Origin: a virus
Length of the DNA: 32,874 bases
IMG/VR virus record: IMGVR_UViG_3300000553_000177
Strand: one strand, 5' to 3'
Shown: one piece after another, positions 7,212-32,678 of the stretch
Position numbering within the stretch: position 1 is the first letter of the stretch
Layout: each line of letters begins with the position of its first letter
Translations under genes and position numbers: made by a program
The notes under the pieces: model-generated
Database searches by the model: none
What the model saw: the letters and a program-made list of their open reading frames with translations, nothing else
What the model was told of the DNA's origin: nothing

Positions 7212-7303
7212 TTACAGATTATATTTTGATGCTATTATTTTAGCTTCTAAATTTTTTTCAAATAACTTGTATCGTTAGATTCGTATATTTTAATATATTT
7301 CAT
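7212..7303 (-). pseudogene. collapsed family A cassette: an 18-codon minigene MKYIKIYESNDTSYLKKI* followed by an orphan ...ASKYNL* end motif
   Basis: manual translation; the ATGA overlap with gene 7300..7626 is retained and the middle of the cassette is deleted. Confidence 0.45.
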
Positions 7304-17077: not shown

Positions 17078-17101
17078 TAAGATTAATCATTTTTACAATT
17101 A

Positions 17102-17530: not shown

Positions 17531-17772
17531 TCTTTACTTTTTAATTTGTGATGTACATAAGTTTTAATATGTTTATATATTGGTTTTGAATGAGTTAAAT
17601 CTATTCCATAATTATTGAAAATAAAATGAATAATAAATTCGATAACATGATCTTCTGTTATAGTTTTATGTGTTTTTTCAATATGTTTTAATGCTTTACG
17701 GAATGATTTTTTAATAATATTCCAATCAAAATTCATTAAACTTTCATTATATTTAGCATATTTAGTTATCAT
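17527..17772 (-). CDS. small protein (81 aa) starting MITKYAKYNESLMNFDW; a degenerate junction is embedded in-frame (apparent fusion)
   Basis: GCTAAATATAATGAAAGTTTAATGAA resembles the family A junction. Confidence 0.45.
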   Translation of the reverse strand: MITKYAKYNESLMNFDWNIIKKSFRKALKHIEKTHKTITEDHVIEFIIHFIFNNYGIDLTHSKPIYKHIKTYVHHKLKSKE

Positions 17773-18005
17773 AAATTATATTTTTTTACATCTCTTGAAA
17801 AATCTAATCTTTTTTTCAATTTTTTTAATTTTTCAATGATTTTTTCAATATCAATTTTTTCTAATGGAACTTTGCCGAAACCACTTATAGCCATATCTAA
17901 TATTATCATTTGTTCTCTAACTTTAGATGATAGTTTTTGAGTGATTTCATCATGCTCACTTCTATTAGATGGTTTAAATTTTTCATTGAATCTTTCTATT
18001 TTCAT
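17769..18005 (-). CDS. family A small protein (78 aa), MKIERFNEKF...VKKYNL
   Basis: ORF track; motifs. Confidence 0.6.
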   Translation of the reverse strand: MKIERFNEKFKPSNRSEHDEITQKLSSKVREQMIILDMAISGFGKVPLEKIDIEKIIEKLKKLKKRLDFSRDVKKYNL

Positions 18006-18232
18006 AAATTATATTTTTTTGCCTCCAAACGATTTTTTAATTCTTTCAATTTCTCTATTAAATTATCAATCTTATTGGAAGAAAGTTCATTTTCATCAAT
18101 ATTGAAATCTATTATAATATCTACCATATAAATATCCATTAAAATTATATCTGTTCTAATTTCATTTGCTAATTTTTGTAAATCTAAATCAAAATGAATT
18201 TCTGATTCATTAAATTTCCTAATTTTCATCAT
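18002..18232 (-). CDS. family A small protein (76 aa), MMKIRKFNESE...AKKYNL; a paralog of 17769..18005
   Basis: ORF track; shared ...IEKLKELKNRL / IEKLKKLKKRL segment. Confidence 0.6.
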   Translation of the reverse strand: MMKIRKFNESEIHFDLDLQKLANEIRTDIILMDIYMVDIIIDFNIDENELSSNKIDNLIEKLKELKNRLEAKKYNL

Positions 18233-18564
18233 AGATTATATTTTTTTGCATCTACTTCGTACTCTTCTATAAAATATCCAGAATCTAAACCTATAAAATG
18301 ATTATCATCCGTTAAAACTACAAAACATCTACCTGAAAGCATTACACCAGTTTCAAATTCAGCATACAACCTATATAATTTACCTTTAGTTAATTCCTTA
18401 GGTGCATCGTCATTACAATAAACATTTCTTAAAAACTTATCATTTTCAAGATTGAAAGGATTAAATTTTGTTTTAAGCCTAATTTGTTGCATAGATAGTC
18501 CTCTTGGACTTCTTTTAGATGATATTGCCTCATTTAAATTTTCATAATCAATCAAATGTTTCAT
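18229..18564 (-). CDS. family A small protein (111 aa), MKHLIDYENL...AKKYNL; the first gene of array 3
   Basis: ORF track; motifs. Confidence 0.6.
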   Translation of the reverse strand: MKHLIDYENLNEAISSKRSPRGLSMQQIRLKTKFNPFNLENDKFLRNVYCNDDAPKELTKGKLYRLYAEFETGVMLSGRCFVVLTDDNHFIGLDSGYFIEEYEVDAKKYNL

Positions 18565-18652: not shown

Positions 18653-19087
18653 ATGAATAAAAATAAGTATAACCTCTTTATAGACGACGAGCGTTTTCCG
18701 AACAAAGATGTTCCGGCAAGTGATAGTGTTTTTCACCTTACAGGTGATAATAAATATCGAGATTTAAAATGGATAATTGTTAGAAATTTTGGAGATTTCG
18801 TTAAAATTATTGAAGAAAGAGGTTTACCGTTGAGGTGCTCGATGGACCATGATTTAAATGATTTTCATTATTATCATTATCAGACTTATACAGTATATAC
18901 AGGAAAAATTGATTATACAGTTGTTGAAGGTACAGGACTTGAATGTGCTAAATGGCTCATTAACTATTTGATGGATAATGATTTAGATGCACCCGAAATT
19001 TTGATACATACTCAAAATACCGTTGGTGCTGAGAATATAAGAATGTTATTTAACGATTATGAAAAATCAAGAATTATTACATTATAA
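18653..19087 (+). CDS. hypothetical protein (144 aa) whose N-terminus, MNKNKYNLFIDDE, carries a KYNL/junction-like sequence in plus orientation
   Basis: ORF track; AAAAATAAGTATAACCTCTTTATAGAC resembles the junction. Confidence 0.5.
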   Translation: MNKNKYNLFIDDERFPNKDVPASDSVFHLTGDNKYRDLKWIIVRNFGDFVKIIEERGLPLRCSMDHDLNDFHYYHYQTYTVYTGKIDYTVVEGTGLECAKWLINYLMDNDLDAPEILIHTQNTVGAENIRMLFNDYEKSRIITL

Positions 19088-19373
19088 AAATTTTTATATT
19101 GGTGATTATTTTATTATAATCACAACTCCTGGTATATGGAATAGTTCAATGAATAATAATTGTCCACTAAATAGTAATATATCTTATCCTTATAAAGGAA
19201 GAATTAAAAATATATTGGCAAGTCAAGTGTATGGAAAAGTAATAATAGGAATGACAGAAGGTATATATGGATGGTCTTTAAGTTATTTAGTAGGAAAAGG
19301 TTTAATTATTCATGATGTAATAAAACAAAGAAAAGTAAAATTAATGAAAATAAAACAAGATTATGAAAAATAA
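19059..19373 (+). CDS. family B small protein, tail KQRKVKLMKIKQDYEK (the likely start is the internal Met near 19149)
   Basis: ORF track; the 5' end overlaps the previous gene. Confidence 0.45.
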   Translation: MKNQELLHYKNFYIGDYFIIITTPGIWNSSMNNNCPLNSNISYPYKGRIKNILASQVYGKVIIGMTEGIYGWSLSYLVGKGLIIHDVIKQRKVKLMKIKQDYEK

Positions 19374-19437
19374 AGACATGTTAGGTGAAATTGGTGATAA
19401 ATAATTTGTTGGAATATTAATAAAAATCAAAAATAAA

Positions 19438-20061
19438 ATGAAAATTCGTTGTGGATTCGTTAGTAATAGTAGCAGCAGTTCATTTATCATAAATGCTATT
19501 GATGGTTTTTCAACCGTAAAAAATGTTGCTGAATATATTATGGATAATGTTAGTTATAAAAGCTATATAACTGAACGAAAAACTTTAGAAAGTATTGATC
19601 CTGATACACCAGTTCATTTCAACGTTGGTGGTGAAGAAACTTATATACGTAAAGTTGATAATAAAATAGTCATAGTAACAACACAAAATATTACTTTTAA
19701 TTTATTTCATGAAAAATGTCTTGATAAAAAAGACTTAACAGAAGATTTTTATAGACAATTTGATTTTATTGAATCAGATGAAGATTATCCTCTTGAAGAA
19801 GGTGAGGAATATGAAATAATTAAAATGGATGATCCTAGAAACTTTACATATTTCTATGGTAAATTTGATGATTTTAATATATTGAAATATAATATTCTTG
19901 GTAAACATACATACTTACAGAAGGGTTGTCCCAGATGCAAAACATCATTTGCATCTGGTTGGAGACTAAAAGGTGGGAGAAGAATTTGTGATTGTCAAGT
20001 ACAAAAATATAAAGACAGAATAACTAGGAAAGAAAAAATAATGAAAATCAATGAAAAATAG
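19438..20061 (+). CDS. family B protein (207 aa), MKIRCGFVSNSSSSSFI..., tail RKEKIMKINEK; a paralog of the next gene
   Basis: ORF track; N-terminus shared with 20051. Confidence 0.55.
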   Translation: MKIRCGFVSNSSSSSFIINAIDGFSTVKNVAEYIMDNVSYKSYITERKTLESIDPDTPVHFNVGGEETYIRKVDNKIVIVTTQNITFNLFHEKCLDKKDLTEDFYRQFDFIESDEDYPLEEGEEYEIIKMDDPRNFTYFYGKFDDFNILKYNILGKHTYLQKGCPRCKTSFASGWRLKGGRRICDCQVQKYKDRITRKEKIMKINEK

Positions 20062-20650
20062 AATAGGATTTGTAAGTAATTCATCTTCAAGTAGTTTTAT
20101 TGTTTTAAAAGATGCAATAACTGGTAAGCAAAAGGATATGATAGTAAATTTTTCAGAGTGGGCTAAATTTTTTATAGCACTTGATGAAGAAAAGAATTAT
20201 AAAGATGCTAAGGAATATGCAACTGAAATGGAATTATATCAAAGTGATGAATATTCAGAACAAAGTAACACTAGATTAAAATATAAATTTGAATATTATG
20301 ATGATGGATATTGGCATTTTGAAGAAACTGATGATTATATTTTTGGTGCAACCACAATGGACAATTTTGGAATGGACGAATATTTTAATTATATTAAAAT
20401 TGATCCTGATTATGTAAGATGGGATGAAGGTTGGAATGATGATCCATCACAAAAAGATCTTGAATTTATCAAAAATAAAAAACAAAGGTATCGTAAATAT
20501 AAATCGCGGTTGCAATTACTGGTGGTGAAGCTCGGTATGTCCTTAACAAGGAAACTGGTGAGATTACACTATTTGTTGGTCCAAAAATGTTTATTCCAGA
20601 TCCTCGCAAAGAAGTTATTGTTAAGAGGGTACTTGATGAGAAATCAGTAA
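20051..20650 (+). CDS. paralog of 19438 (MKNRIGFVSNSSSSSFIV...). The 3' ~150 nt of this ORF runs out of frame across the MVP fragment, so it is probably chimeric or disrupted
   Basis: ORF track; a second reading frame over 20503-20748 encodes an MVP repeat. Confidence 0.4.
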   Translation: MKNRIGFVSNSSSSSFIVLKDAITGKQKDMIVNFSEWAKFFIALDEEKNYKDAKEYATEMELYQSDEYSEQSNTRLKYKFEYYDDGYWHFEETDDYIFGATTMDNFGMDEYFNYIKIDPDYVRWDEGWNDDPSQKDLEFIKNKKQRYRKYKSRLQLLVVKLGMSLTRKLVRLHYLLVQKCLFQILAKKLLLRGYLMRNQ

Positions 20651-20748
20651 AATTATGGTTTCCTGATAGTATTGATGCAGCACAGCACAATAAACAATTA
20701 GAATCTGAAATGAATCTAAATGGAATGCTAGTGTATGTCCATTATTAA
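20503..20748 (+). pseudogene. isolated fragment of an MVP N-terminal repeat (81 codons, no start)
   Basis: ITGGEARYVLNKETGEITLFVGPKMFIPDPRKEVIVKRV matches the MVP repeat [27 protein letters not shown]; locally elevated GC. Confidence 0.5.
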
Positions 20749-20769
20749 TAAAAACAAGGTTAATTCTTT

Positions 20770-21054
20770 ATGAAAGATAATTATATAGTATGTTGTAAGA
20801 ATGTTGATGAATCGGTAAAGATTCATAAGTTTTTATTTTTGAATGGTATATATTGGAGGGATACAAGGGATGTTATTAGGAGTGGTACTAGATGGTTATG
20901 GTTAAGGATAAGTCAGGGACAAATACAAGCGTGTGGTGAGTCTTACAGATATTTAGATGGTTATTATGAGCATATTAATATATGTGATTACACATTTATA
21001 ACGGTAGATAAGTTAATGAGAAAATTAAAATTGCAGAGATTAAATGAGATATGA
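20770..21054 (+). CDS. family B small protein (94 aa), MKDNYIVCCKNVDES..., tail MRKLKLQRLNEI
   Basis: ORF track. Confidence 0.55.
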   Translation: MKDNYIVCCKNVDESVKIHKFLFLNGIYWRDTRDVIRSGTRWLWLRISQGQIQACGESYRYLDGYYEHINICDYTFITVDKLMRKLKLQRLNEI

Positions 21055-21374
21055 AGATAGATGTGAAGATTGGTGAGTTAGACAAGATGGCATATGATTT
21101 ATATGTTGATGCGACAATGAGAGCGAATAAAATATTATGTAAGAAGAACAAGTTGATATATGTCAAAGTTGATTTAATAACTGTTTTAAAGAAAGGTGAA
21201 TACTATGATATTACTTATCCAGTTGAAAGATTAGTTTGTGTAAGGTATGGTCCAGGTAAGCATGATATAATGTTATTTAATGACGGTTATTATGGTTATG
21301 AATCTATTTGGGAATATTTTTATACGGTAAAGGAATCAAGGAGAATGAAATTAAAAAGATTGTTGTTGATATGA
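21051..21374 (+). CDS. family B small protein (107 aa), tail ESRRMKLKRLLLI
   Basis: ORF track; ATGA overlap. Confidence 0.55.
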   Translation: MKIDVKIGELDKMAYDLYVDATMRANKILCKKNKLIYVKVDLITVLKKGEYYDITYPVERLVCVRYGPGKHDIMLFNDGYYGYESIWEYFYTVKESRRMKLKRLLLI

Positions 21375-21610: not shown

Positions 21611-22030
21611 ATGAACATATTTGAAAAGTTAAATGTTCCTGAGAACACTAATGGATTTATTAATAAGCAAGTGATATGTATAAAGGATAAGAAATTTATA
21701 TATGCACAGGTTAATAGTGAAAAGAAACCTTATAGATTAGTAAGGTGGAGATTTCTTGTTGGTAAAGAAAGTTTTATAAAGGATACTAGGAGATATAGAA
21801 TTGGTTCACTTATGAGGTGTTATGAACATAGTGCTATAAAGAGATTTATTAATAGATGTAGGAGAATATATTCTAATAAACTTGTATCAGATTATCCTTG
21901 GAAATGTGATATAATTGATAATAAAGGTCGGTTTATCATAATGAATTGTGAGAAAGCGTTAAAATATTTTCGAGTTGTTGATTTACAAGATATTAGGCAA
22001 AAGAAATTATTAAACTTGAAATCATTATAG
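21611..22030 (+). CDS. family B protein (139 aa), tail IRQKKLLNLKSL; its 3' end overlaps the 3' end of a convergent family A gene by 6 nt
   Basis: ORF track. Confidence 0.55.
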   Translation: MNIFEKLNVPENTNGFINKQVICIKDKKFIYAQVNSEKKPYRLVRWRFLVGKESFIKDTRRYRIGSLMRCYEHSAIKRFINRCRRIYSNKLVSDYPWKCDIIDNKGRFIIMNCEKALKYFRVVDLQDIRQKKLLNLKSL

Positions 22031-22330
22031 ATTATATTTTGTTGCATTGAGTTCTAATTCATATTCTTCTATTTCATCTTCATGTAGTTTTCTTTCTATT
22101 TGGTCATGTCTACACCATAGAGTTAGACCTTTACTAAATTGAACTGCGTAAGGTACATTACTATAATCATTATAAATTATTTTAGCACTTCTAGAATCTT
22201 CGAAAGATTTTAAAAATTCTCTCTTTATTAACACATAATCATCTACTTTATAATTAATAATATCTAGAAATTCTGGGTTCTCGTCATACCACCCTGCGGG
22301 AGATTCGTACATTTTTAAGTGTTTCATCAT
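22025..22330 (-). CDS. family A small protein (101 aa), MMKHLKMYESP...ATKYNL
   Basis: ORF track. Confidence 0.6.
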   Translation of the reverse strand: MMKHLKMYESPAGWYDENPEFLDIINYKVDDYVLIKREFLKSFEDSRSAKIIYNDYSNVPYAVQFSKGLTLWCRHDQIERKLHEDEIEEYELELNATKYNL

Positions 22331-22644
22331 AGATTATATTTTTTTGCATCTATTTTTATTTGTAATTCATCTAGAAGATCTTGAATATCATCTGATTGCA
22401 TAACAATATTATTTAATAAATTTTTTTCATCACAAGGTTGTGTTTCTTCATCATTATATTCATTTATAAGAACTAACCATGGTGTAAGAGTATATCTTTT
22501 TGCTATATAGTATTCTTTTTTATCATGTGCTGTAATTTCCCATATATAATACCAATACCATATAGTATCTTGTCCTATACTTTCTTCAAGTAGGAATTGT
22601 TTAGGCTTTATCTTCAGTTTCTCAAATAATTTAATATGTTTCAT
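22327..22644 (-). CDS. family A small protein (105 aa), MKHIKLFEKL...AKKYNL
   Basis: ORF track. Confidence 0.6.
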   Translation of the reverse strand: MKHIKLFEKLKIKPKQFLLEESIGQDTIWYWYYIWEITAHDKKEYYIAKRYTLTPWLVLINEYNDEETQPCDEKNLLNNIVMQSDDIQDLLDELQIKIDAKKYNL

Positions 22645-23009
22645 AAGTTATATTTTGCTGCATCTACATACATTTGTATGTCTTCTTTATTTTGAGAATA
22701 GTATGCTATATTATTTCTTGTAACATTTTCAGCAAAGTATTCTGTTGTATCATCTTTATAATTTCTGATAGTGAATTTAGATTCAAATTCTGGTGGCACA
22801 TATTCATATTGTACTATATATTTAGTTTTATTATTATCTGCTGGAAAAATATTAAATATTTGACCAATATTTGTATTTAGAAAATTTATAAATGCTGAAT
22901 TTGTTACTATATTATTAGTTTGTAAGATAACATAATCATCTATTTCTGGTAGTGAACCATGAACTTTATTCCATTTATTTTCATTTTCGTACAATTTAAT
23001 ATATTTCAT
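22641..23009 (-). CDS. family A protein (122 aa), MKYIKLYENENKWNKV...AAKYNL
   Basis: ORF track; its first 16 aa plus the junction are identical to those of 23214..23501. Confidence 0.6.
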   Translation of the reverse strand: MKYIKLYENENKWNKVHGSLPEIDDYVILQTNNIVTNSAFINFLNTNIGQIFNIFPADNNKTKYIVQYEYVPPEFESKFTIRNYKDDTTEYFAENVTRNNIAYYSQNKEDIQMYVDAAKYNL

Positions 23010-23501
23010 AGGTTATATTTTTTTGTTACCATGTGGATACTATTCTCTTCTAAGTATTTACGAATTTCATCACGATTTTTCTTAATATTTATTGGTTGAT
23101 ATTCATATCCAAAAATCGCTGTACTTGTTTTAGATTTCGGTGTTATTATATCCATTGTTGTATTATACTGAAAATTACCAAGAAATGGATCTGCATTGTA
23201 ATCAATTAAAATCTTAGCAACTAGCAGCACTCATTAAAGGAGTCCATTTACCTGTATCTTGAATATCTTCTGGATTTGCACCATGTTCTAACATATATTT
23301 TACAACTTCAAAATTATTCATTCTAGTCGCCCAATTTAATGTTCCACAAAAATTTGGATCAGCACCATTTTCAATTGCCAATTTAATTTTATCAAAATTC
23401 ATATACCATTTATCAGCACCTATTTTGAAATGTGTCCATGTTGCAGCATGAAGAACTTTATTCCATTTATTTTCATTTTCGTACAATTTAATATATTTCA
23501 T
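23006..23501 (-). pseudogene. ankyrin-repeat family A member split by a frameshift near 23214-23232 (ORFs 23214..23501 and 23006..23230)
   Basis: ANK consensus GADPNFCGTLNWA..., ...VVKYMLEHGANPEDIQDTGKWTPLMSAA, then LLVAKILIDYNADP in the other frame; ends ...TKKYNL. Confidence 0.5.
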
Positions 23502-23588
23502 AGGTTATATTTTTTTCTGTGGTATGCTGTGGTATAAAGTTCATAAATATATTTCTTACTTCGGTTGCTGGTTTTATATTTGTGAAAA

Positions 23589-24029
23589 TCACAAATTATA
23601 TTTTATTGCATCTACATATGTATCTACGTCTTCTTTATTGTGTGAGTAGAAGAATATATTTTCTTCTGGTATCCATCTTCTATATGTTATTTTTGAATTT
23701 TCTTTTCTAATATATCTTATACTATTATAAAGTCTTGCTGGAGTTGCTATGTTTTTTTCCCAAAAATATTCCTCAAACAAATATTTAAATTTTGGTGGCA
23801 CAGTATCATATTCTATTTGGTATGCATTTCTGTTATTTTGTTCGAAATTGTCTATCTTCTTGGTTATATTACATATATTAGTTCCTATAAATTTTTTGAA
23901 TTCGGGATCAAAAGAAGGTTCTAAAAGAGGATGGTCATTTTTATTTATAAGAGAAGATACGATGGCATAGTCATAAATTTGTGGTTTAGATTTATTTTTA
24001 TATTCATTTAATTTCATTAGGTATTTCAT
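23589..24029 (-). CDS. family A protein (146 aa), MKYLMKLNEY...AIKYNL; a hairpin overlaps its stop
   Basis: ORF track; hairpin GTGA-AAA-TCAC at 23582-23592. Confidence 0.6.
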   Translation of the reverse strand: MKYLMKLNEYKNKSKPQIYDYAIVSSLINKNDHPLLEPSFDPEFKKFIGTNICNITKKIDNFEQNNRNAYQIEYDTVPPKFKYLFEEYFWEKNIATPARLYNSIRYIRKENSKITYRRWIPEENIFFYSHNKEDVDTYVDAIKYNL

Positions 24030-24030
24030 A

Positions 24031-24318
24031 TTATAAATTATATTTATTTACATCTTCTATATATTCTAGTTCTTTTCTGTTTTTGGAGTATTCAATTATG
24101 TCTTCTCTTTTAAAATAAATAATTCTATTACCAGATACGATGGCATATTCGGGTGTATTATATGCTATATATCTTATTTTAATAATTTTTCCTATAATAA
24201 AATTAGATTTTTCACGGTACTGCCAAAGCACTCGGTCATCGTAAACGATAACATAATCATCAATTTGGGGTGGAGTTTCTTTTTTTTCGAATATAATAAA
24301 GGGTGTTATATGTTTCAT
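24031..24318 (-). CDS. family A small protein (95 aa), MKHITPFIIFE...VNKYNL
   Basis: ORF track. Confidence 0.55.
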   Translation of the reverse strand: MKHITPFIIFEKKETPPQIDDYVIVYDDRVLWQYREKSNFIIGKIIKIRYIAYNTPEYAIVSGNRIIYFKREDIIEYSKNRKELEYIEDVNKYNL

Positions 24319-24320
24319 TG

Positions 24321-24728
24321 TTATAGATTATATTTTAGAGTATCTCTCCATAGTTCAAAGTCATTTAGTTTATTTATAAAGTTAAAGGTTTCTGTGTATT
24401 TAAAATAAAAATCTTCACCATTATGGATTGGTAAAATCGTTTTCATAAATGTTACAAGGTCTTTCATTTGGTCACTATATGTTTTTGCATCATCGTTCAT
24501 TACGAATGATTTGAAATTTCTATTATCTGTTATTAATGTGCTTAATTTGTATTTTGAATTTGTAAAAACAATGGCGGCATATTCGTCACTTGTTTCTTTT
24601 TTTATTTCAAATTCAAATTCATTTGTAATTTCAATTATTTTTTCATATAGTTGTATTAGTAATGGATTTGTTTCATCATATGATAATTTTTCATAAACTT
24701 TTTGATAAATCGTTTTAATATATTTCAT
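24321..24728 (-). CDS. family A protein (135 aa), MKYIKTIYQK...TLKYNL; the first gene of array 4
   Basis: ORF track. Confidence 0.6.
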   Translation of the reverse strand: MKYIKTIYQKVYEKLSYDETNPLLIQLYEKIIEITNEFEFEIKKETSDEYAAIVFTNSKYKLSTLITDNRNFKSFVMNDDAKTYSDQMKDLVTFMKTILPIHNGEDFYFKYTETFNFINKLNDFELWRDTLKYNL

Positions 24729-24765
24729 TCATTTATATATAAAATTTTTATTTTAGGAAAAAGAG

Positions 24766-25026
24766 TTGTATATTTATTATATGGGAGTAATTTGTGAGAA
24801 TTATAGTAAATGTAAATTAATAGAAGGTTTTGGTCCTTTTGTTTGTAGACATCATTTTGAGCATGATTATCAAAATGCTTGTGATGTATCAAATTGTGGT
24901 TGGTTAAAACATATTTTGATAAATGATAAGTCATTAAAGATAAAGATTAATTATATTGCGGTTTGTGTAGATTATAATAGGTTAGTAAGGAAGGAAAAGT
25001 TAAAGAGGATTAATGAAAAATTATAA
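24766..25026 (+). CDS. Cys-rich family B small protein (86 aa), tail VRKEKLKRINEKL
   Basis: ORF track. Confidence 0.5.
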   Translation: MYIYYMGVICENYSKCKLIEGFGPFVCRHHFEHDYQNACDVSNCGWLKHILINDKSLKIKINYIAVCVDYNRLVRKEKLKRINEKL

Positions 25027-25280
25027 AAGGTAATTATATCATACAATGTAAGAATGTTGATGAATCTATAAAGGTTCAAAAAATTTTATTTTCTGTTGGT
25101 TCAATTGTTAATCTTAGGTATGGTTGGTTAAGAATAAGTGAATCTAAAATTATAGCGTTAGGAGAGCCTTACAAACATTTGTATTGTTTTTATATTAACA
25201 TTAAGAATTATAAATATATGACTGCTAATATGTTAATGCGGAAAATAAAATTGGAGAAGTTAAAATCAATTAATATATGA
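25013..25280 (+). pseudogene. paralog of 20770..21054 (KGNYIIQCKNVDESIKVQ...MRKIKLEKLKSINI) with an insertion of about 13 nt after ATGAAA that shifts the frame; no in-frame ATG
   Basis: manual translation; compare ATGAAAGATAATTATATAGTATGTTGTAAG (20769) with ATGAAAAATTATAAAAGGTAATTATATCATACAATGTAAG (25013). Confidence 0.45.
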
Positions 25281-25465
25281 AGAAGGAAAAGTTAATATGT
25301 GAGTATAGTGATAAGTGTACTGTTGGTGTTAAGTGTGTACATTATCTTGTACATGATAAGACAACAGGTTGTGGTCACTTTGGTTGTGATCAGGTGGATA
25401 ATGCAGTTTGTGTGAGTATTAAAGAGATAAGGAAGAGAAAGTTAGAGAAGTTAAATTCATTATAA
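25277..25465 (+). CDS. Cys-rich family B small protein (62 aa), tail IRKRKLEKLNSL
   Basis: ORF track; ATGA overlap. Confidence 0.5.
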   Translation: MKKEKLICEYSDKCTVGVKCVHYLVHDKTTGCGHFGCDQVDNAVCVSIKEIRKRKLEKLNSL

Positions 25466-25783
25466 ATTGTATTTATTAGCGTCAAGTCTCATTTCAACAT
25501 ATTGTACGGCTTCTTGTATATAATTAGTTTGAAAAACAATATTAATGACATTGGAGGGACAGCGAAAAGAAGTGTCATAATCAATTTTTTTTAGTTTGGT
25601 GTTTTTGTCAGGATAAAAGTCACAGTATAGTTTGGGCCAGGTTGAGTATCTTTTGATTATAATAAAATCATTATCTTCTGGTATAAATTTTAATATTTCA
25701 TATATATCAAAATGAGTTTCTACTTCTTCTTCTACTATAAATTTTTCATAATTAGAATTTTCGAATGTTTTTAAGTATTTCAT
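25460..25783 (-). CDS. isolated family A small protein (107 aa), MKYLKTFENS...ANKYNL
   Basis: ORF track. Confidence 0.6.
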   Translation of the reverse strand: MKYLKTFENSNYEKFIVEEEVETHFDIYEILKFIPEDNDFIIIKRYSTWPKLYCDFYPDKNTKLKKIDYDTSFRCPSNVINIVFQTNYIQEAVQYVEMRLDANKYNL

Positions 25784-25836
25784 AGAAATTATATATAAAA
25801 ATTTTTTATTAAATTATTTTTTATTATATTTAGATT

Positions 25837-26154
25837 ATGAAAATGTTTAAAATAGAAGAAGGTTTGGTATTATACTGTAAGAAGGACACTCATATTTTTA
25901 ATAAAGAAAAGATAAATAAAGGATCGGAGTGTAAAATTGTTGCAGTTCAAAGATCTACTATATTTTTTGATAACACTTGCCAAATAGATTATGATAAAAA
26001 GGGACTTGCTATAAGTATTAAGAAAAATGGATCTGATTTTTCTTTATTATTTATGAGCTTTAGGAGCTATGACTACGAGTATATTTGGGATCATTTTATA
26101 CTAGAGGAATTATATTTAAGGAAGCAAAAACTAAAAAGGCTGAGTAGTTTATGA
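25837..26154 (+). CDS. family B small protein (105 aa), tail LRKQKLKRLSSL
   Basis: ORF track. Confidence 0.55.
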   Translation: MKMFKIEEGLVLYCKKDTHIFNKEKINKGSECKIVAVQRSTIFFDNTCQIDYDKKGLAISIKKNGSDFSLLFMSFRSYDYEYIWDHFILEELYLRKQKLKRLSSL

Positions 26155-26176
26155 ACTATATTAATAAGGAAGAATT

Positions 26177-26776
26177 ATGAGAAAAATTAGTTTTTTTATT
26201 CGTAGTAATAATATTGAGGATTATAAAGAGTTTATAATCTTAGCTGATCGGTATGGGTTTAATACTAGTAATTTAGAAAATTTAAGAATAGATGATCAGG
26301 GAAAACTTTTTGTAAAAAAGTTTGGTGTTCGTTTCCAACCGATTGGAATTGGAATCATCAGTGATATACCTGATCATGTTGTGGACACAAAATTTGATCT
26401 ATGTTCAAGGGTTTTTTTGGCTTATGAAAATTATGACATTGCAAGGGAAGTATTAAAATCATCTGATATGGAAAAATATATTAGGATTTATAAACATAGA
26501 CTTAGAAAATTCAAACATCATATTCAAGGATTATTAAAAGATAAATTAAAGAAGTATCCATATTTTGAGATTGGTGAGGAGGTTTATAGTGACATGGATG
26601 TTAAATATCGTTGGATAAAAGAGTTGGGTTATACTTATTTTGTAATATTGGGTTATACTTATTTTAGTAGTGGTTGGGAAATAAGAACACAGAAAGGTTA
26701 TTCTTTTTTTGAGACTTTGAATCCTAGGTATAAGAAGAAAATTCGTAAGTATAAGTTGAAGAAAATTGGTTTATAG
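26177..26776 (+). CDS. family B protein (199 aa), tail IRKYKLKKIGL
   Basis: ORF track. Confidence 0.55.
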   Translation: MRKISFFIRSNNIEDYKEFIILADRYGFNTSNLENLRIDDQGKLFVKKFGVRFQPIGIGIISDIPDHVVDTKFDLCSRVFLAYENYDIAREVLKSSDMEKYIRIYKHRLRKFKHHIQGLLKDKLKKYPYFEIGEEVYSDMDVKYRWIKELGYTYFVILGYTYFSSGWEIRTQKGYSFFETLNPRYKKKIRKYKLKKIGL

Positions 26777-26784
26777 AATATTTT

Positions 26785-27090
26785 ATGATTTTAAAAATTG
26801 GAGATATAGTTAGGGTTAAATCAATCCAGTGGTATAACAAGAATAAAAAATATTGTGTACATGGTCCTGGCCCGTATGGATTTGTAGTCAAGAATACAAC
26901 AGTTAATTTTACAGACCATATGAGTACATATTGTGGTAAAATTGGTATCGTTGTTGGTTATTTACCTTTTGGTTATGATATTCAATTTGAAGATGAATCT
27001 CAATATTATCGTTACGTATGGACAAATGATATGTTGGATTTGGAGAAGTTAATACGTAAGAAAAAATTAGAAAAGATTAAAAAAATGTAA
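26785..27090 (+). CDS. family B small protein (101 aa), subfamily GD.V.VKS..WYNKNK, tail IRKKKLEKIKKM
   Basis: ORF track; paralog of 31249..31530 and 31791..32063. Confidence 0.55.
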   Translation: MILKIGDIVRVKSIQWYNKNKKYCVHGPGPYGFVVKNTTVNFTDHMSTYCGKIGIVVGYLPFGYDIQFEDESQYYRYVWTNDMLDLEKLIRKKKLEKIKKM

Positions 27091-27093
27091 AAT

Positions 27094-27393
27094 ATGAAAG
27101 TAAATGATATTATAATTTGCAAAAAAAATTATAAAATTTATAAAAAACATGCGAGATATAAAATCACAAATATAATTATCAATGATTCTATATTTCATCA
27201 AGATTGGATAGTATGTGGGGACGCAGGTATGCGAGCCCAGTTTGGTTTTGGTTTGCATTTTTCTTTGATAGAAGTAGAAAATTGTAATTATTTTTATAAT
27301 TATTTTTATACTTTGAAGGAATATCGTAAATTGAAATTAGGGAGAATAAATGAGAGTTCATTTAGAAATAAATGGAGAAAAATATGGTTTTAA
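27094..27393 (+). CDS. family B small protein (99 aa), tail YRKLKLGRINESS
   Basis: ORF track. Confidence 0.5.
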   Translation: MKVNDIIICKKNYKIYKKHARYKITNIIINDSIFHQDWIVCGDAGMRAQFGFGLHFSLIEVENCNYFYNYFYTLKEYRKLKLGRINESSFRNKWRKIWF

Positions 27394-27599
27394 TATGTGT
27401 ACATTCGGCTAAAGGTTTTACTATTGGTAAAATATATAATAACTTTAAAAATTCTCATGTGTCTGCGGATTTTTTTGTTGGCACTGATGATAACGGTAAA
27501 TCTATTTGGGCACTTAAAGAATATTTTACACCACTATCTTTACATAGAAAATTAAAATTAAAAAAATTAGATGGCATTAGTGAGAGCAAAGATCTATAG
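27372..27599 (+). CDS. family B small protein (75 aa), tail HRKLKLKKLDGISESKDL; converges on an orphan family A KYNL end motif
   Basis: ORF track; GATCTATAGATTATATTTTT is a palindromic Leu-stop junction. Confidence 0.5.
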   Translation: MEKNMVLICVHSAKGFTIGKIYNNFKNSHVSADFFVGTDDNGKSIWALKEYFTPLSLHRKLKLKKLDGISESKDL

Positions 27600-27718
27600 A
27601 TTATATTTTTCCATTTCTTTTTTAAGTTTAAGATCTATTATCATATGTTATTAGATATTCCTTGTAAGGGAATGTAGCCGTACGGTCGTTTATTTGTAAA
27701 ATTTGTCCTATTCTATTT

Positions 27719-27928
27719 TTAATCACTACCTGCTTTGGATGCATTTATGTGTGATTCACTAAATCCGTGTGAAGAACTATGTGAACTTGAAGATGAATGT
27801 GAAGAAAATGAATGTGAAGATGAGGAAGAATGTGAAGAAGATGAACTGTGTCCACCGCCACCTCCTCTTGGAAAAAGGGGTGATGTAATCATAAACATAA
27901 ATGCAATAATAATACTAATTTTTTTCAT
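27719..27928 (-). CDS. secreted His/Ser-rich low-complexity protein (start taken at MKKISIIIAFMFMITSPLF)
   Basis: signal peptide, then G5-(HSSSSS)n repeats; the antisense Glu/Cys-rich ORF is a mirror artefact. Confidence 0.45.
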   Translation of the reverse strand: MKKISIIIAFMFMITSPLFPRGGGGGHSSSSSHSSSSSHSFSSHSSSSSHSSSHGFSESHINASKAGSD

Positions 27929-28159
27929 ATTGTTTTTTTTAAGTGAGTGAATATTAATTAAACATGATTGAATAAACAACAATAGTAACAACTGTTGTCA
28001 CGAACAAAATTGCAACAACTAGCTGCAAATTGCTAACCAAAACTTCCTTTTCTAATACATTTTTCATATTTGTTTTCGTTTATAATGCAAAGATAAGGAA
28101 AATTATTAAAAGAAAAAAAAATAAAAGGGAGTCTTTTGAACTCCCTTATAATAAGAACA

Positions 28160-28924
28160 TTAAATTTCTATTTGTTGAACAACCCAAAAATCACTTGCTA
28201 AATTTTTATTTGTCAAATAAGAATAAGGAATATAAAAATATCCTTTATCACCCCAACTTGTTCCCCAGCTATTCATTGTAATAAACCATTGTTTAGTATC
28301 ATCATATCCACAGCACATTACAGCGTGGCCACCGAGTATTGATTCATATGGTCCTGGCATTGGAACTATACCAGTTTTTGCTACAGAGTCACTTTCAAAT
28401 GATGAGTAAACAGTAAACCCATAAACAAAAGGAAATCCACTAGCAAGTGTACCTTTCATTTGATCTAAAGTTTGGGTAACCGCTTGATATTTAACTGCTT
28501 GATGTAATAACGCTTCTGTGTAGGATTTGGTTGTAGGTTTAGTTTTAAATTTACTTATAATATATGGCCATGTAGTTTCAGTACAAGCACCTTGTAGATT
28601 TAGTGTTTTAATACCATCACGAATTTCAGCACCTGCATCTTGTTTTACTGTTCCTTCAATAACTCTTTCATTATAATAAATAAATAGTCTTGATGGTTCA
28701 AATTGAATTTTAGATTTTTGTTTAATTTGATCAAAACGATGTGCAGCTGCGATTGCATTTGCAGTACATGATCCTAAATTTGATTGATCCACAACGGGTG
28801 GACAATTTGTTCTCAAATCAATTTTAGGTGGTAAAGATTTTAATATGCTTTCTGAGACTGTAAATTGATAATCTCTAAAATCTGGAATTTGTGGCTTCCA
28901 GCCATACCTTTGAATTTTTCTCAT
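28160..28924 (-). CDS. papain-like cysteine peptidase (C1 family), no signal peptide
   Basis: Q...GSC (DQSNLGSCTANAIAAA), His (GGHAVMCCGYDD) and Asn/Trp (NSWGTSWGDKGYFY) active-site motifs. Confidence 0.65.
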   Translation of the reverse strand: MRKIQRYGWKPQIPDFRDYQFTVSESILKSLPPKIDLRTNCPPVVDQSNLGSCTANAIAAAHRFDQIKQKSKIQFEPSRLFIYYNERVIEGTVKQDAGAEIRDGIKTLNLQGACTETTWPYIISKFKTKPTTKSYTEALLHQAVKYQAVTQTLDQMKGTLASGFPFVYGFTVYSSFESDSVAKTGIVPMPGPYESILGGHAVMCCGYDDTKQWFITMNSWGTSWGDKGYFYIPYSYLTNKNLASDFWVVQQIEI

Positions 28925-29032
28925 TTTTTATATTTTTCTTGTATATATATTTTTAAATGAGTCAATGAAGCAAAAGTGTAAAAAATACTTTAACTTTGTT
29001 CATAAATTTTTGTTCACGGGTGTTATTTATAA

Positions 29033-29441
29033 TTCTGGAGCATTAAAGAAGATGAAAAACAAGCAATTGAAAATCACTTATAAATTATATTTTTCTATAT
29101 CTCTTTGAAATGGATATGAAGTGGATAGGGTTTTTAAAGAAGTTGCTAGTGGAATGAATGATAATAGAAAAGAATTAAATAAATTACTTGAAATTAAATA
29201 TAAATATATAGTTATAGAACATAAAGATAGGTTAACTAGATTTGGCTTTAATTACTTGGAAACTTTATTGTTCAGACTAGGAACAGAAATAATAGTAATC
29301 AATAGGGATAGAGAAGATGAAACAGATTTAATTAAAGATTTTATATCAATTATCACATCATATTGCTGTAGATTATATGGAATGAGACGATGTGAAACAA
29401 AAAAAGAAAAAATATTAGAGGTAATAAATGATAACCATTAA
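29033..29441 (+). pseudogene. tnpA: IS607-family serine recombinase TnpA: an N-terminally truncated and disrupted remnant. The C-terminal ~105 aa are intact from a GTG at 29121
   Basis: NGYEVDRVFKEVASGMNDNRKELNKLL...IVIEHKDRLTRFGFNYLE...SIITSYCCRLYGMRR matches the IS607 TnpA C-terminal region. The upstream frame (..KEDEKQAIENHL*) is interrupted by a 20-25 bp junction-motif-like insert at 29079-29103. Confidence 0.6.
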
Positions 29442-30723
29442 ATTAAAATACAAATCCAACACTGATTTTCAGGATTTTCTTTCAAACCTTCAAAGACAAT
29501 TCTCCAATGTCTATAGATATAGTTATAATAGATTTTATGATGGTTTATCAAAAAAAGAAATTTACCACCTCATTCCATCTCTAAACAACGTAGAACTCAT
29601 TAAAGGTAGATTAATTAATGATTGTATTGATTTTGCTTACAGATTATATGAAAAAGATAAAAAATCAAACCATAAATCAATCTTCGGCGGTAAAAAGAAT
29701 TTCATCCTGAAATGTAAAGAAAAATTAACAAATGAACAATTTTCACAGAAAAGGTTAATATCGTTATATTTTCAAGGTGAAACTGCTAGATCAGGTAATA
29801 GAAATTTTAACCTTGATATCCTTAATAACACAATAACATTTAAATATAATAAACAATTCCATTTTGATTTATCTGTTAAACCATCTAAAAACCAACTAAA
29901 ACAATTAATCGAACTTCAGGATCTATGTAATCAAAAGAAATCAAAATTTACAATCACTTTAAGTCATGAATTTATTAATATTAGTTTTGAACCAACAAAG
30001 CATGAAGTGATTGATTTAATTGATGATAGGTTTGTTGGAATTGATTTAAATCCAACAAATATTGGAATGTCCATTTGTAATTCCAAGATGGAAGTGATTG
30101 ATAGTTATGATTTTGAATTCTCTGAAATCATAAACAAGATAAAAAAATCAAAGGTAGCAAGTAATTCCAAGGAAATGAAATATTTGAATAATAAATTGGA
30201 TTATGAAATATTGAATATAAGTAAAAAAATATCAGGCATATCCAAACATTATAAATGTAAATTTATATTTATAGAGGATCTAGAATTTAAAAGTAAAAAT
30301 GAATGGAATAACAGGTTATTAAAGAATTTATGGAAAAGAAATATTTTCATTCAGAATTTAGAAAAGAGATGTGGGATAGCCAATCAGAGGTTATTCAAGG
30401 TTAATCCGGCATATAGTTCATTTATAGGTAATTGTATGTATGATATTGTAGATCCTGTAAATTCTAGTATGGAAATTTCTAGAAGGGGTTATGAAATAAT
30501 AATAAATAAGTCAAAGAAATTTTATCCAGTAGTTTGGTTAAAAGAGTCATTAAAACACCAATGGAAGGAAAAGGTTAGTGATATACCAGATAGTTGGAAA
30601 GAGTTATTCGATTTAGTAAAAAACTTGAAATTGAGTTATCGAGTTTCATTAAAGGAGGATGTAAATGATTTTAATGTTTTTAGTAAAAAAGTTAGGATGT
30701 ATGATATTTATCAATTTTCTTGA
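29428..30723 (+). CDS. tnpB: IS607-type TnpB (OrfB / Fanzor-like RuvC nuclease), 431 aa
   Basis: RuvC-I GIDLNPTN, RuvC-II FIFIEDLEF and a later D in a degenerate zinc-finger region; position after tnpA; AGAGG 8 nt before the ATG. Confidence 0.6.
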   Translation: MITIKLKYKSNTDFQDFLSNLQRQFSNVYRYSYNRFYDGLSKKEIYHLIPSLNNVELIKGRLINDCIDFAYRLYEKDKKSNHKSIFGGKKNFILKCKEKLTNEQFSQKRLISLYFQGETARSGNRNFNLDILNNTITFKYNKQFHFDLSVKPSKNQLKQLIELQDLCNQKKSKFTITLSHEFINISFEPTKHEVIDLIDDRFVGIDLNPTNIGMSICNSKMEVIDSYDFEFSEIINKIKKSKVASNSKEMKYLNNKLDYEILNISKKISGISKHYKCKFIFIEDLEFKSKNEWNNRLLKNLWKRNIFIQNLEKRCGIANQRLFKVNPAYSSFIGNCMYDIVDPVNSSMEISRRGYEIIINKSKKFYPVVWLKESLKHQWKEKVSDIPDSWKELFDLVKNLKLSYRVSLKEDVNDFNVFSKKVRMYDIYQFS

Positions 30724-30806
30724 TAAAGTCATATTTTTCTATATTTTTTCTAACTCTATTGAATAATAAACTTTATTATCTTTTTGATATTTTGTTTTGA
30801 AAAACT

Positions 30807-31154
30807 TCAAATAATTGTACCAATTTCTAAAACAACACCATTTGTTGAAGTATCAGTAAATATAATTACATTGTCATCTTCATCTTTATCCATTTCTCCC
30901 ATCACTTCATGCTCAGGAAAATAATTTGTAACTTTATCATTACATATAATAATATCACTACAACATGAACGATAACCATCACTTGGATCTTCTGTTGCTT
31001 TGTATGTTATTCCATCTAATATAAATGTAACAACTGTAGCATCTTCATCCTCTTCTGATTCGGTTGTTATGTCAACACCAGATAACATATGTAAACCAAC
31101 TAAACTTTTTAATTCAACTATATTATAGTTTTCAAATAATTTTATATATTTCAT
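30807..31154 (-). CDS. family A-like protein (115 aa), MKYIKLFENY...; C-terminal motif lost; degenerate junction downstream (TACAATTATTTGAAGT)
   Basis: ORF track; N-terminal motif; downstream ATG mutated to ATT. Confidence 0.5.
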   Translation of the reverse strand: MKYIKLFENYNIVELKSLVGLHMLSGVDITTESEEDEDATVVTFILDGITYKATEDPSDGYRSCCSDIIICNDKVTNYFPEHEVMGEMDKDEDDNVIIFTDTSTNGVVLEIGTII

Positions 31155-31248
31155 TTTGTTATATATAAATTTTTTTATTTTAAAAATATTTAATATATTT
31201 GTTTAATATGGAATATAAAGATATGGAATACGATTTTAAAGAAATTGA

Positions 31249-31530
31249 ATGAGTGCAGGATATAAATATAAGATAGGTGATGTTGTTTATATCAAAGATT
31301 TAAATTGGTTCAAAAAACATCAGGGATGGGAATTTGGTGTAATGTTTATCAGCAAATCTATGTTTGAACATTGCGGTAAAAAGGCAATTATCACTAATGA
31401 ATTTGGTGGTTATAAATATGTGGTAGATATAGATAATCGCCATATTTATGCTGAGAAAATGTTTGAAACATTACGAGATGTTAGAAAAAATAAATTAAAT
31501 AAATGGACTTCAGTAAGATACAACACATAA
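31249..31530 (+). CDS. family B small protein (93 aa), subfamily GDVVYIKDL.WF, tail VRKNKLNKWTSVRYNT
   Basis: ORF track. Confidence 0.5.
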   Translation: MSAGYKYKIGDVVYIKDLNWFKKHQGWEFGVMFISKSMFEHCGKKAIITNEFGGYKYVVDIDNRHIYAEKMFETLRDVRKNKLNKWTSVRYNT

Positions 31531-31805
31531 GTTTTACAACTGCTAAAGAGGCAGTTATAGTTGCTAAATTTCTTCAAAGCCTTGACTATAAGATTAAAAA
31601 AGAATATTTGAAAGAATCCTTCTATGAATGTAATTTACCTTTTGGTAATTTTGAAATTGCTCTTCTCTACTACTATTATGGATTCACTAAGCTTGGAAAC
31701 GGGGAATGGCGTTGTTCTAATGATGGTGGTGTTATATTTACATATTCAACAAAGGCTAAACATTTAATTAGAAGAGAAAAATTGAAAAGGTTAAACAGTT
31801 TGTAA
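31503..31805 (+). CDS. family B small protein (100 aa), tail IRREKLKRLNSL
   Basis: ORF track. Confidence 0.5.
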   Translation: MDFSKIQHISFTTAKEAVIVAKFLQSLDYKIKKEYLKESFYECNLPFGNFEIALLYYYYGFTKLGNGEWRCSNDGGVIFTYSTKAKHLIRREKLKRLNSL

Positions 31806-32063
31806 CTTTTTAAGTTTCATTTTTCTCATAGTTTTTAAATCATCCAACATATAATCTTGAAATACCCATTCATCACCTGCTATATCCAATAGGTAAAAAT
31901 CAGAATGGGCTGCTGTAACTTGTGCTCGCATGCCACAATACTGTTTCATTTCAGAAGTGAAACAATGTTGACCTTGCCGGCTAATACAATCATCAAAATC
32001 TTTGTTTTTATTATACCATTTCAAAGATTTTATAACAACAACATCACCCTCCTTGTATTTCAT
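31791..32063 (-). CDS. family B small protein (90 aa), MKYKEGDVVVIKSLKWYNKNK..., tail MRKMKLKKLQTV
   Basis: ORF track; paralog of 26785..27090. Confidence 0.55.
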   Translation of the reverse strand: MKYKEGDVVVIKSLKWYNKNKDFDDCISRQGQHCFTSEMKQYCGMRAQVTAAHSDFYLLDIAGDEWVFQDYMLDDLKTMRKMKLKKLQTV

Positions 32064-32367
32064 TTGTTATTTTTTTAAGTTTCTGCTTTCTAATAAGTTG
32101 TTCGTATGTAATCCTCTTATAATCAGTAATATCTGTGGCATTTTTAAATATGATATCCATATCTTTCATTGTCTTATATTTCATATCACAACTTTTACCT
32201 GTTAAAATATAAACATATTTCATATTTTTAAAAATTGATATGTTAAATTTTTTCAGTTGATGATTTCTTTGTAAATCATCCCAATAATAACCAAAACTAA
32301 ATAAATATTTTTGCAATTGAATAACATCAGAAACCTTTGTCTTTATTATAAGTTGTTTAAGTTTCAT
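32044..32367 (-). CDS. family B small protein (107 aa), tail IRKQKLKKITNEIQGG; a paralog of 12664..12981
   Basis: ORF track; shared LQKYLFSFGYYW segment. Confidence 0.55.
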   Translation of the reverse strand: MKLKQLIIKTKVSDVIQLQKYLFSFGYYWDDLQRNHQLKKFNISIFKNMKYVYILTGKSCDMKYKTMKDMDIIFKNATDITDYKRITYEQLIRKQKLKKITNEIQGG

Positions 32368-32678
32368 TTTATTTTAGTTTTAAGTTGCAATAATGCCTCT
32401 TTAATTGCTTCTTTGTCAAGATTATCAATGTTTTCAAGTAAAAAATCAATATCTATTTCTATAAGTTTTTTTAATTTGGCTTTTCTCTGTAATTTAAGAT
32501 TTTTCTTTTTATCTAAAATTGTTGGTGGTGCACTTTCTTCCTTTTCCTTTAATGGCGTAACATATCCACCACTACCCCAACCATAAAAACCTTTAACATT
32601 ATTTGCAGCGTGTTCTAATACTTCTTTAAAGGTGCCTTCAAAGTTGCCAAGAAACGCATTACTATGATGTCCACCCAA
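32364..32678 (-). CDS. protein with an internal family B-type segment (LKLQRKAKLKKLIEIDIDF) followed by an extra K/E-rich C-terminal domain. The N-terminal frame is open upstream (possible alternative start)
   Basis: ORF track; the in-frame upstream sequence ...GEDPNCDLGGHHSNAF has no ATG before a TAA at about 32753. Confidence 0.4.
   Translation of the reverse strand: MGGHHSNAFLGNFEGTFKEVLEHAANNVKGFYGWGSGGYVTPLKEKEESAPPTILDKKKNLKLQRKAKLKKLIEIDIDFLLENIDNLDKEAIKEALLQLKTKIK

Follow-up and report, generated by a model that had tools for sequence, protein, structure and literature searches.

We studied a locus in the viral DNA record IMGVR_UViG_3300000553_000177 from IMG/VR, whose whole stretch of 32,874 nt is called the window in the following. 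The contig is carried by the samples ENA ERZ27271870 and ERZ27271927 and JGI 3300020724 and 3300020722. Positions 29109-30757 of the window are the right-hand 1.65 kb of a 1984-bp insertion sequence (IS) of the IS607 family, with 95% identity. On the plus strand, the locus comprises the remnant of the transposase gene tnpA (29109..29441), an intact tnpB gene of 431 aa (29428..30723) and the non-coding right end of the element (30724..30757). A predicted omega-RNA scaffold (about 30525..30757, plus strand) lies over the last ~66 tnpB codons and this right end. That is, we are dealing with an immobilised, decayed IS607 copy, in which the transposase gene is half deleted while tnpB and the guide-RNA scaffold are intact. 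To both sides, the minus strand carries what appear to be pieces of a paralog family, here referred to as family A. Its members show an MK(Y/H)(I/L)K(L/T)(Y/F)E N-terminus, a hypervariable middle and a (K/E)KYNL-stop C-terminus, and follow one another head-to-tail, overlapping by ATGA and for the most part encoded on the minus strand.

An earlier inspection of the letters alone (in the following, the sequence-only reading) had described the locus as an IS607-type unit with 5'-truncated tnpA and intact tnpB that occupies a cassette slot and is bounded by direct repeats of a family-A "junction motif". The identity of the unit is borne out by a match to NF033518, by tblastn and by the full-length 431-aa TnpB. 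The two bounding repeats do not hold up: one is the IS's own right end, while the other one is the 3' end of a family-A gene.

Homology to the transposase starts at IS position ~339, i.e., at window position 29109, as located by pairwise alignment and by a profile that covers the initial 400 nt of the element, and continues to the tnpA end (TnpA residues 82-190). In tblastn, residues 82-190 of the intact TnpA align to 29112-29438 (94%). The longest open reading frame (ORF) of the remnant (29121-29441, GTG start, 106 aa) matches positions 90-186/187 of NF033518 with 114.3 bits (cutoff 110) and also hits Pfam Resolvase and the PHROG 6620 transposase (4.8e-31). The left end and the first 81 codons, including the helix-turn-helix (HTH) and the catalytic-Ser region (YTRVSS, about residue 58), are all gone from the window copy. 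Lacking HTH and catalytic Ser, the tnpA remnant is inactive. Upstream of 29109, neither tblastn nor the profile of the first 400 nt finds TnpA homology, and when the N-terminal 95 aa of TnpA are aligned to 28925-29110, 85/200 shuffles score at least as well. The sequence-only reading had seen the left motif as an insert of 20-25 bp that interrupts the tnpA frame, which is untenable given that tnpA homology begins only at about 29109. The frame further upstream (WSIKEDEKQAIENHL, up to its stop) was ruled out as TnpA-derived since it does no better than shuffles, and its 71% DNA resemblance to 29309-29353 was treated as chance. An independent 5' truncation in the same IS family is observed at positions 1-600 of contig L023, where an unrelated ORF replaces the left end and the ~25 first tnpA codons (part of the HTH) and the catalytic-serine region is retained.

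The ends of the element are given by intact copies elsewhere. A TnpB (P0001) of 430 aa that is 94% identical to the 431-aa protein of the window is found on nine contigs from nine Joint Genome Institute (JGI) samples, always downstream of a complete TnpA of 190 aa. The two genes make up an intact element of 1984 bp. Its nine copies are identical across the 1984 bp, bar one base in one copy, and come with six different left flanks and eight different right flanks. These flanks diverge immediately before GTCTAAACTCATTTTAAC on the left and immediately after TGA-TAAAGTCATATTTTTCTATATTTTTTCTAACTCT (ending CTCT) on the right. The respective right end TAAAGTCATATTTTTCTATATTTTTTCTAACTCT with the terminus CTAACTCT is identical in the nine contigs. 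More divergent elements (L022, L023, L033, L034, L037-L039) show the same ending, such that the right boundary is kept in relatives with TnpB identities of 56-96%, i.e., down to 56%. Because the flanks of the intact copies diverge there, we place the right end of the IS in the window between 30757 and 30758, 34 nt past the tnpB stop. Whether intact tnpA copies exist, a question raised in the sequence-only reading, is answered by the 190-aa TnpA found in L007-L015, L022 and L033.

Within the right end, the repeat GTCATATTTTTCTATAT is located at 30728-30744 (plus strand). Inverted copies are present in the left ends of L007, L022, L033 and L037. L007 carries AAATATGGAAAAATATGAC and L037 a perfect ATATAGAAAAATATGA, while L022 and L033 have two each. 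TnpA of the IS607 family is reported to bind multiple subterminal repeats in both ends (PMC6188088). Since the layout at both ends matches these known repeats, we read GTCATATTTTTCTATAT as a putative subterminal TnpA-binding repeat. The window holds the complete right end, and the left end, which carries the inverted repeat in intact copies, is absent.

At the left junction of the intact copies GTCT is invariant, as is CTCT at the right terminus; the contigs are short and probably chimeric, and their left and right flanks are thus not pairable. Among the insertions of intact copies is one in a canonical tnpB gene, and insertions of the clade are also found beside bacterial housekeeping genes. 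In L012/L007, the right flank shows the intact 1984-bp IS adjoining a canonical zinc-finger tnpB (EYKCDWYGKNLSIIGRFDPSSKTC), which would be an IS607-type insertion into another TnpB element. The right flank of the intact copy in L008 encodes a C-terminus (HNEKIKIKKD) like that of family B, the second paralog family of the window (see below).

Given this boundary, the right motif (30726-30747) is part of the IS right end itself. The sequence-only reading had taken it for a junction that follows tnpB; it lies inside the IS, since the nine contigs with their eight right flanks as well as the divergent relatives all end at the position equivalent to 30757.

Next to the left motif, the picture is a different one. 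Positions 29078..29110 read on the minus strand as PFQRDIEKYNL-stop, i.e., as a family-A gene 3' end, with R-D-I-E-K-Y-N-L-stop encoded by 29078-29103. What had been called the family A junction motif is the reverse complement of such a family-A 3' end. The left copy agrees in 28/36 nt with the paralog end DFSRDVKKYNL-stop (17772-17783) and, in the same register, in 23/36 nt with the IS right end. Judged from these comparisons, the left motif belongs to a family-A gene as its 3' end and does not demonstrably stem from an IS end.

The exact 14-mer ATATTTTTCTATAT shared by both motifs, as claimed in the sequence-only reading, is confirmed and occurs in the window at 29087 and 30731 only, i.e., in the left copy at 29087-29100 and in the right copy at 30731-30744. 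The ungapped identity of both motif copies is 20/24. ATATTTTTCTATAT is the reverse complement of ATA-GAA-AAA-TAT (I-E-K-Y). The reason for this sharing is that the E-K-Y codons, often found at the C-termini of family A, coincide with the core AGAAAAATAT of the repeat; the respective end word of the family is TTATAAATTATATTTTTCTATATC. Exact 14-mers are not rare in the 25% GC DNA of the window: the 1984-bp IS and the remaining window have 7 distinct words of at least 14 nt in common, and in three cases end repeats and family-A-type sequence are involved.

The strongest competitor for the left motif, which we nevertheless consider quite improbable, is that it represents a relic IS end, be it a solo right end that remained of a tandem or circle-junction copy, or else a left-end repeat in inverted orientation. 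Right ends of relatives do resemble the left copy: L030 has TAAATTATATTTTCTATAT, and L033 matches CAATT...ATAAAT..TATATTTTTCTATAT by eye in ~34/40 columns. Furthermore, a stop codon directly precedes the motif at both places. When profiles are applied, the resemblance does not extend. A right-end profile (tnpB 3' end plus right end) finds only the 23-nt motif with E = 72, without extension into tnpB-like sequence, and the left-end profile yields E = 6.6; neither is significant. The IS-end profile matches 29084-29106 no better than it matches the C-terminal sites of other family-A members at 7685-7709 and 27599-27625 (E = 32-72), and the left-end value is no better than at other family-A sites. 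In a tblastn search of 28925-29125 for a relic tnpB 3' end with 120 TnpB homologs, only scattered low-score chance matches were obtained. The minus strand, in contrast, offers a perfect RDIEKYNL-stop with the paralog similarity given above.

We also weighed the possibility, raised in the sequence-only reading, that the junction motif of family A is the preferred target or homing site of the element. TnpA would then recognise family-A ends for their resemblance to its own subterminal repeat. The coincidence of AGAAAAATAT with the E-K-Y codons of many family-A ends, several of which match the IS-end profiles weakly, is in line with this idea, as is the 14-mer adjoining the breakpoint. In addition, the window copy and L031 are both situated inside family-A arrays and adjoin a family-A N-terminal stub. 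Yet no such motif is found in the flanks of the identical intact copies or of L022, L023, L033 and L037, such that at least 6-8 insertion sites plus those of divergent relatives have unrelated, motif-free flanks, and insertions are also observed in the canonical tnpB gene and beside bacterial housekeeping genes. Since the window copy has lost its original left junction, the motif now beside the remnant was not the insertion site. Since family-A genes fill much of the genome, landing in one of them is expected anyway. Taken together, we hold a target preference for this motif to be hardly probable.

The second part of the locus that the sequence-only reading had predicted, a structured RNA at and just past the tnpB 3' end, is supported by several observations. 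Across 13 elements, the last ~240 nt of tnpB and the right end are almost invariant, while the respective proteins are only 56-96% identical. The rate of synonymous substitutions (dS) is 0.21-0.36 within the last 71 codons compared to 0.96-1.7 within the first 360 for 5/7 comparisons with the window copy, a fourfold depression. A like fall is seen for L034 (0.53; its 5' part is saturated), but not for L036. For ~30525..30757, RNAalifold predicts a consensus of eight helices, in which 98.1% of the cells are paired. Therein, 10 pairs are changed on both sides, where shuffles give 2.9 +/- 1.0 (0/500) and controls with slid partners 2-4. The window scaffold sequence alone folds with z = -2.55.

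In the predicted scaffold, a closing helix is formed by AAAAAAGUUAGGA (30685-30697) and UUCUAUAUUUUUU (30737-30749). Its 3' strand is the 3' half of the right "junction motif", and the scaffold ends with CUAACUCU at 30757. A hairpin UAUCAA-UUUUC-UUGAUA covers the tnpB stop codon (30709..30725, plus strand) in those elements where the GTCATATTT motif is retained. Three solo tnpB relatives (L024, L031, L036) have lost the GTCATATTT segment along with the stop-codon hairpin and still have the RNA helices. This would fit a transposase role of the GTCATATTT part and a split of functions in the right end into a transposase site and the RNA. A comparison with known RNA covariance models, proposed alongside the prediction, returned no family for the scaffold: cmscan with Rfam over 28900-31200 (E <= 10) gave only four chance snoRNA/miRNA matches, and RAGATH-18 was not matched. 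Concerning the two observations named in the sequence-only reading as speaking against it when combined, other copies have indeed unrelated flanks without the motif, while the structured RNA, whose absence was the other part, is supported.

For TnpB, the guide is known to be the flank just outside the right end (PMC10691335, PMC10690162). Applying this rule to the boundary between 30757 and 30758, the predicted guide starts at 30758 with the first flank bases past the right end and reads ATTGAATAATAAACTTTATT (30758..30777, plus strand), which is unique in the window. A guide beginning exactly at the motif copy, as proposed before, does not agree with this; the start set by the right-end boundary is 11 nt past the motif. 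In CboIStron, the scaffold end UCGG mirrors TGGG, the target/TAM (target-adjacent motif) (PMC10690162). If the element studied here is analogous, its invariant GTCT and CTCT would suggest a CT core and a TAM with GTCT at its end.

The protein that would use this guide is well preserved. The RuvC triad D206 (GIDLN), E283 (FIEDL) and D342 (DPVNAS.EI.RRG) is invariant in 25 aligned family members. None of the 25 has CxxC pairs, i.e., a zinc ribbon, between RuvC-II and RuvC-III, where the clade reads NPAYSSFIGN..Y...DPVNAS. Zinc-finger loss is documented for some TnpB branches (PMC10691335), and its absence here does therefore not exclude membership in TnpB. Assignment to the RIIIr-4 clade of Altae-Tran et al., which also has no zinc finger, was rejected, since it shows a His at RuvC-III where D342 is conserved here (PMC10691335). 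An AlphaFold2 model of the window TnpB (predicted local distance difference test, pLDDT, of 82.7) was compared to known structures with Foldseek, which reports Cas12f (4e-12), ISFba1 TnpB (8iaz, 2.4e-8), ISDra2 TnpB (8h1j, 5e-7) and mimivirus Fanzor2 (9b0l, 2e-6). The model thus points to a Cas12f/TnpB fold. At the sequence level, TnpB has no Pfam match and a sequence-profile search of the PDB gave nothing relevant.

More than 1000 homologs of the window TnpB are named IS605 OrfB/TnpB by their sources. Relatives identified by tblastn are located in Lak megaphages, in a 462-kb uncultured phage and in Campylobacter phage CP220. Searching genome contigs with the single TnpB protein found nothing, and a profile search of the same contigs revealed only 4 distant loci in metagenome-assembled genomes (MAGs) of Gracilibacteria, Omnitrophota, Muribaculaceae and an unclassified bacterium. 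Solo tnpB genes of the same clade with 66% identity are found in L039-L041 (JGI 3300077321/323/572) between an epimerase gene by NusG and HAD-hydrolase/NTP-transferase genes. Such a neighbourhood is that of a bacterial chromosome, and the samples are those that also hold the active 1984-bp IS. Because of this context, and with Dojkabacteria and Gracilibacteria MAGs among the sources, we regard the TnpB clade as common to bacteria and phage-like contigs.

We also investigated selection on tnpB. Compared to relatives, dN/dS (the ratio of nonsynonymous to synonymous rates) is 0.13-0.19. Between the window and L021 (Ga0214237_1002766), a 99.5% variant that has the truncation in common, we find 7 synonymous and 3 nonsynonymous changes in tnpB (binomial p = 4e-4 under neutrality). 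L021 corresponds to window positions 28820-30807 and continues with unrelated sequence from 30807/30808, which encodes a tRNA-synthetase-like C-terminus and a cell-wall-hydrolase-like ORF. Its break coincides with a conserved family-A N-terminal word and may reflect true recombination or a chimeric assembly.

To the right of the IS, positions 30758..30825 read on the minus strand as LVQLFEVFQNKISKR followed by two stops, i.e., as a degenerate N-terminal fragment of family A (compare MKHLKLFEDFED). The fragment is out of frame with the gene at 30807-31154 and agrees in 18/24 nt with codons 5-12 (KLFEDFED) of the paralog at 7151. Probably, the IS interrupted a family-A gene whose 5' stub we see here, which the sequence similarity suggests but does not prove. 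The same layout is present in another family-A array in L031/L032 (73% TnpB identity), where the stub MKHIKQFENFFTDLFKKNDK (with stop) adjoins the right end. In L031, everything left of tnpB is deleted up to the start of the next gene. The gene at 30807..31154 (minus strand) starts with MKYIKLFENYN and is without the KYNL end, in agreement with the loss of its C-terminal motif stated in the sequence-only reading; L021 diverges from the window at 30807/30808, its border. Likewise, the observation that the unit sits in place of a family-A gene body is correct, with a family-A 5' stub and a 3' end on either side.

The most economical history that we infer from this layout is an insertion near the 5' end of a family-A gene followed by a deletion. 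That is, the complete IS (left end, tnpA, tnpB with the omega-RNA, right end) would have inserted about 18 codons from the start of a family-A gene in opposite orientation. A later deletion would have removed the left end together with the initial ~340 bp of the IS (with HTH and catalytic Ser) and most of the interrupted gene body, stopping ~10 codons before the stop of the interrupted gene. The remnant can no longer transpose. The left motif would then be the EKYNL-stop end of the interrupted (or a neighbouring) paralog. The tnpB ORF, the RNA scaffold in its 3' end and the right end have survived. If expressed, the TnpB-omega-RNA nuclease would be guided by the adjacent flank (30758 onward), and its cutting would be limited to genomes in which the uninterrupted allele lies beside a suitable TAM. 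We regard this history as a whole, i.e., insertion into a family-A gene, later deletion and survival of tnpB, RNA and right end, as likely.

Several points weigh against it. An uninterrupted (empty-site) allele was not found, and we can only infer in which order the events took place and which gene was interrupted. Within viral contigs, a search with the 115-aa family-A protein gave no relatives, the exact right-flank pattern had 0 matches and so had the left flank of an intact copy. The 14-mer is less than 20 bp from the truncation breakpoint, for which a naive coincidence estimate is about 2e-4 to 2e-2, and a mechanistic link, e.g., a TnpA pseudo-site that steered where the rearrangement ended, may be behind it. 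The RNA structure was predicted on the same alignment that was used for counting pair changes. The scan for promoters and terminators was uninformative and showed fewer promoter-like sites than shuffles. Finally, all 10 differences between the window and L021 are within 29492-30227, and gene conversion could mimic purifying selection.

That the IS fragment was instead picked up and relocated as a gene cassette by some activity recombining the junctions of family A is, to our assessment, very improbable: it does fill the slot of a family-A gene body between 5' stub and 3' end, L021 breaks exactly at the family-A boundary 30807/30808 and adjacent paralogs with identical N-termini (23009, 23501) make junction-based recombination plausible in the array, but the right "junction" copy is IS sequence and the left one a gene end, so that there are no two equivalent sites, other insertion sites have unrelated and motif-free flanks, all six contigs with the exact window TnpB show one context without a second remnant location, no recombinase is associated with the remnant, and insertion followed by deletion explains the layout, with L031 as the same outcome after a larger deletion.

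Next, we relate the locus to known systems. In common with the IS607 family (IS607, IS1535, CboIStron-type; NF033518), the element has a serine-recombinase TnpA with an N-terminal DNA-binding domain, which is intact in relatives, and a downstream tnpB that overlaps tnpA. Long terminal inverted repeats are missing, subterminal repeats are present in both ends, and the left junction and the right terminus show the same short word, here GTCT and CTCT. The respective words are TGGG and TCGG in CboIStron (PMC10690162) and GG in IS607 (PMC6188088), while the putative core is CT-type and AT-rich here, not GG. In contrast to family members, the window copy has neither the left end nor the first 81 tnpA codons and is not a functional IS.

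ISFba1 (8iaz; PMC11061315) and ISDra2 TnpB (8h1j) share with the window TnpB the fold, the RuvC triad, and a scaffold that is encoded at the tnpB 3' end and runs to the transposon end with the guide taken from the flank. For ISFba1, an IS607 TnpB, the right-end RNA (reRNA) is derived from RAGATH-18 (PMC11061315). The window system differs in that its TnpB has no zinc finger and no match to Pfam or PDB on the sequence level, its RNA matches neither RAGATH-18 nor other Rfam families, and an extra C-terminal region of ~80 aa is overlapped by the RNA.

ISCaje4 from Campylobacter phage CP220 and relatives is similarly located in a phage genome, with a truncated serine-recombinase gene (80 aa, resolvase-like) directly ahead of a full-length TnpB from the same clade. 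Over 97% of the query, its TnpB is 33% identical; the element is only distantly related and its ends differ. The window copy is a decayed IS607-family element with a TnpB/omega-RNA module, to which ISCaje4 of Campylobacter phages is the closest annotated parallel. Most relatives (L024, L030, L031, L034, L036-L039) are tnpB plus RNA and right end without tnpA, i.e., similar to solo tnpB (IS1341-like). The window copy still has a recognisable half of tnpA and thus represents an intermediate stage.

Regarding its surroundings, the window has 25% GC and dense small genes with frequent ATGA overlaps, and is dominated by two paralog families. Family A covers 197-2014, 6533-8573, 15707-18564, 22025-25783 and 30807-31154, mostly on the minus strand. 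In total, 36 KY(N/D)(L/M/V/F) sites are found in the 33-kb window, about 30 of them on the minus strand with a stop directly after. Solo family-A remnants without gene body are located at 7215-7226, 7972-7983, 15277-15288 and 27597-27608. At 182-211, two convergent family-A-type ends overlap in a near-palindrome (LKYNL-stop on the plus strand, 182-193; DKYNL-stop on the minus strand, 200-211). The family-A genes 22641-23009 and 23214-23501 have identical first 16 codons (MKYIKLYENENKWNKV) and upstream DNA and are divergent thereafter, which suggests recent recombination or duplication at family-A boundaries. The second gene of this pair has ankyrin-like content and no KYNL end. Family B occupies 9999-10310, 12664-12981, 19059-21374, 24766-27599 and 31249-32678 on both strands and ends with R(K/R)xKLKKL plus few residues.

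Two further genes stand apart from both families. At 13074-14360 (minus strand), a protein of 428 aa has Major Vault Protein shoulder and repeat domains (PF11978, 7.9e-28; PF17795, 7.9e-8) and a weak SPFH/Band 7 match; such a gene is unusual for a phage-like contig. At 27719-27991 (minus strand), a small predicted secreted or membrane protein has a Gly5 run followed by His/Ser repeats (HSSSSSHSSSSSHSFSSHSSSSSHSSSHG). Since PHROGs provide almost no annotation for the neighbouring genes, the phage-like nature of the window rests on its gene layout and on where relatives are located.

The main value of the locus is that of a worked example: identical intact copies elsewhere fix the ends of a decayed IS to the base, and an apparent cassette bounded by direct repeats resolves into an IS end and a host gene end. 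The omega-RNA scaffold of ~230 nt is without Rfam model and could be curated. Going further, one may propose for these AT-rich, phage-like genomes that TnpB of the zinc-finger-less clade and its omega-RNA are kept past the loss of tnpA as a guide-programmed homing or competition nuclease, which would cut co-infecting relatives with the uninterrupted paralog allele and convert them to the allele bearing the IS, and jointly that a subterminal repeat mimicking the EKYNL gene-end word biases insertion or rearrangement to the arrays. As a joint claim, we deem this speculative and rather unlikely. What the survey of relatives brings to light is a zinc-finger-less TnpB clade that is abundant in large phage-like contigs and MAGs of candidate phyla and that repeatedly sheds tnpA, with tnpB, RNA and right end retained (L023, L024, L030, L031, L034, L036-L039). 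ISCaje4 of phage CP220, a resolvase remnant plus TnpB, is counted among these cases of recurrent loss. This repeated loss of tnpA fits the view of TnpB persisting as a homing-type selfish module.

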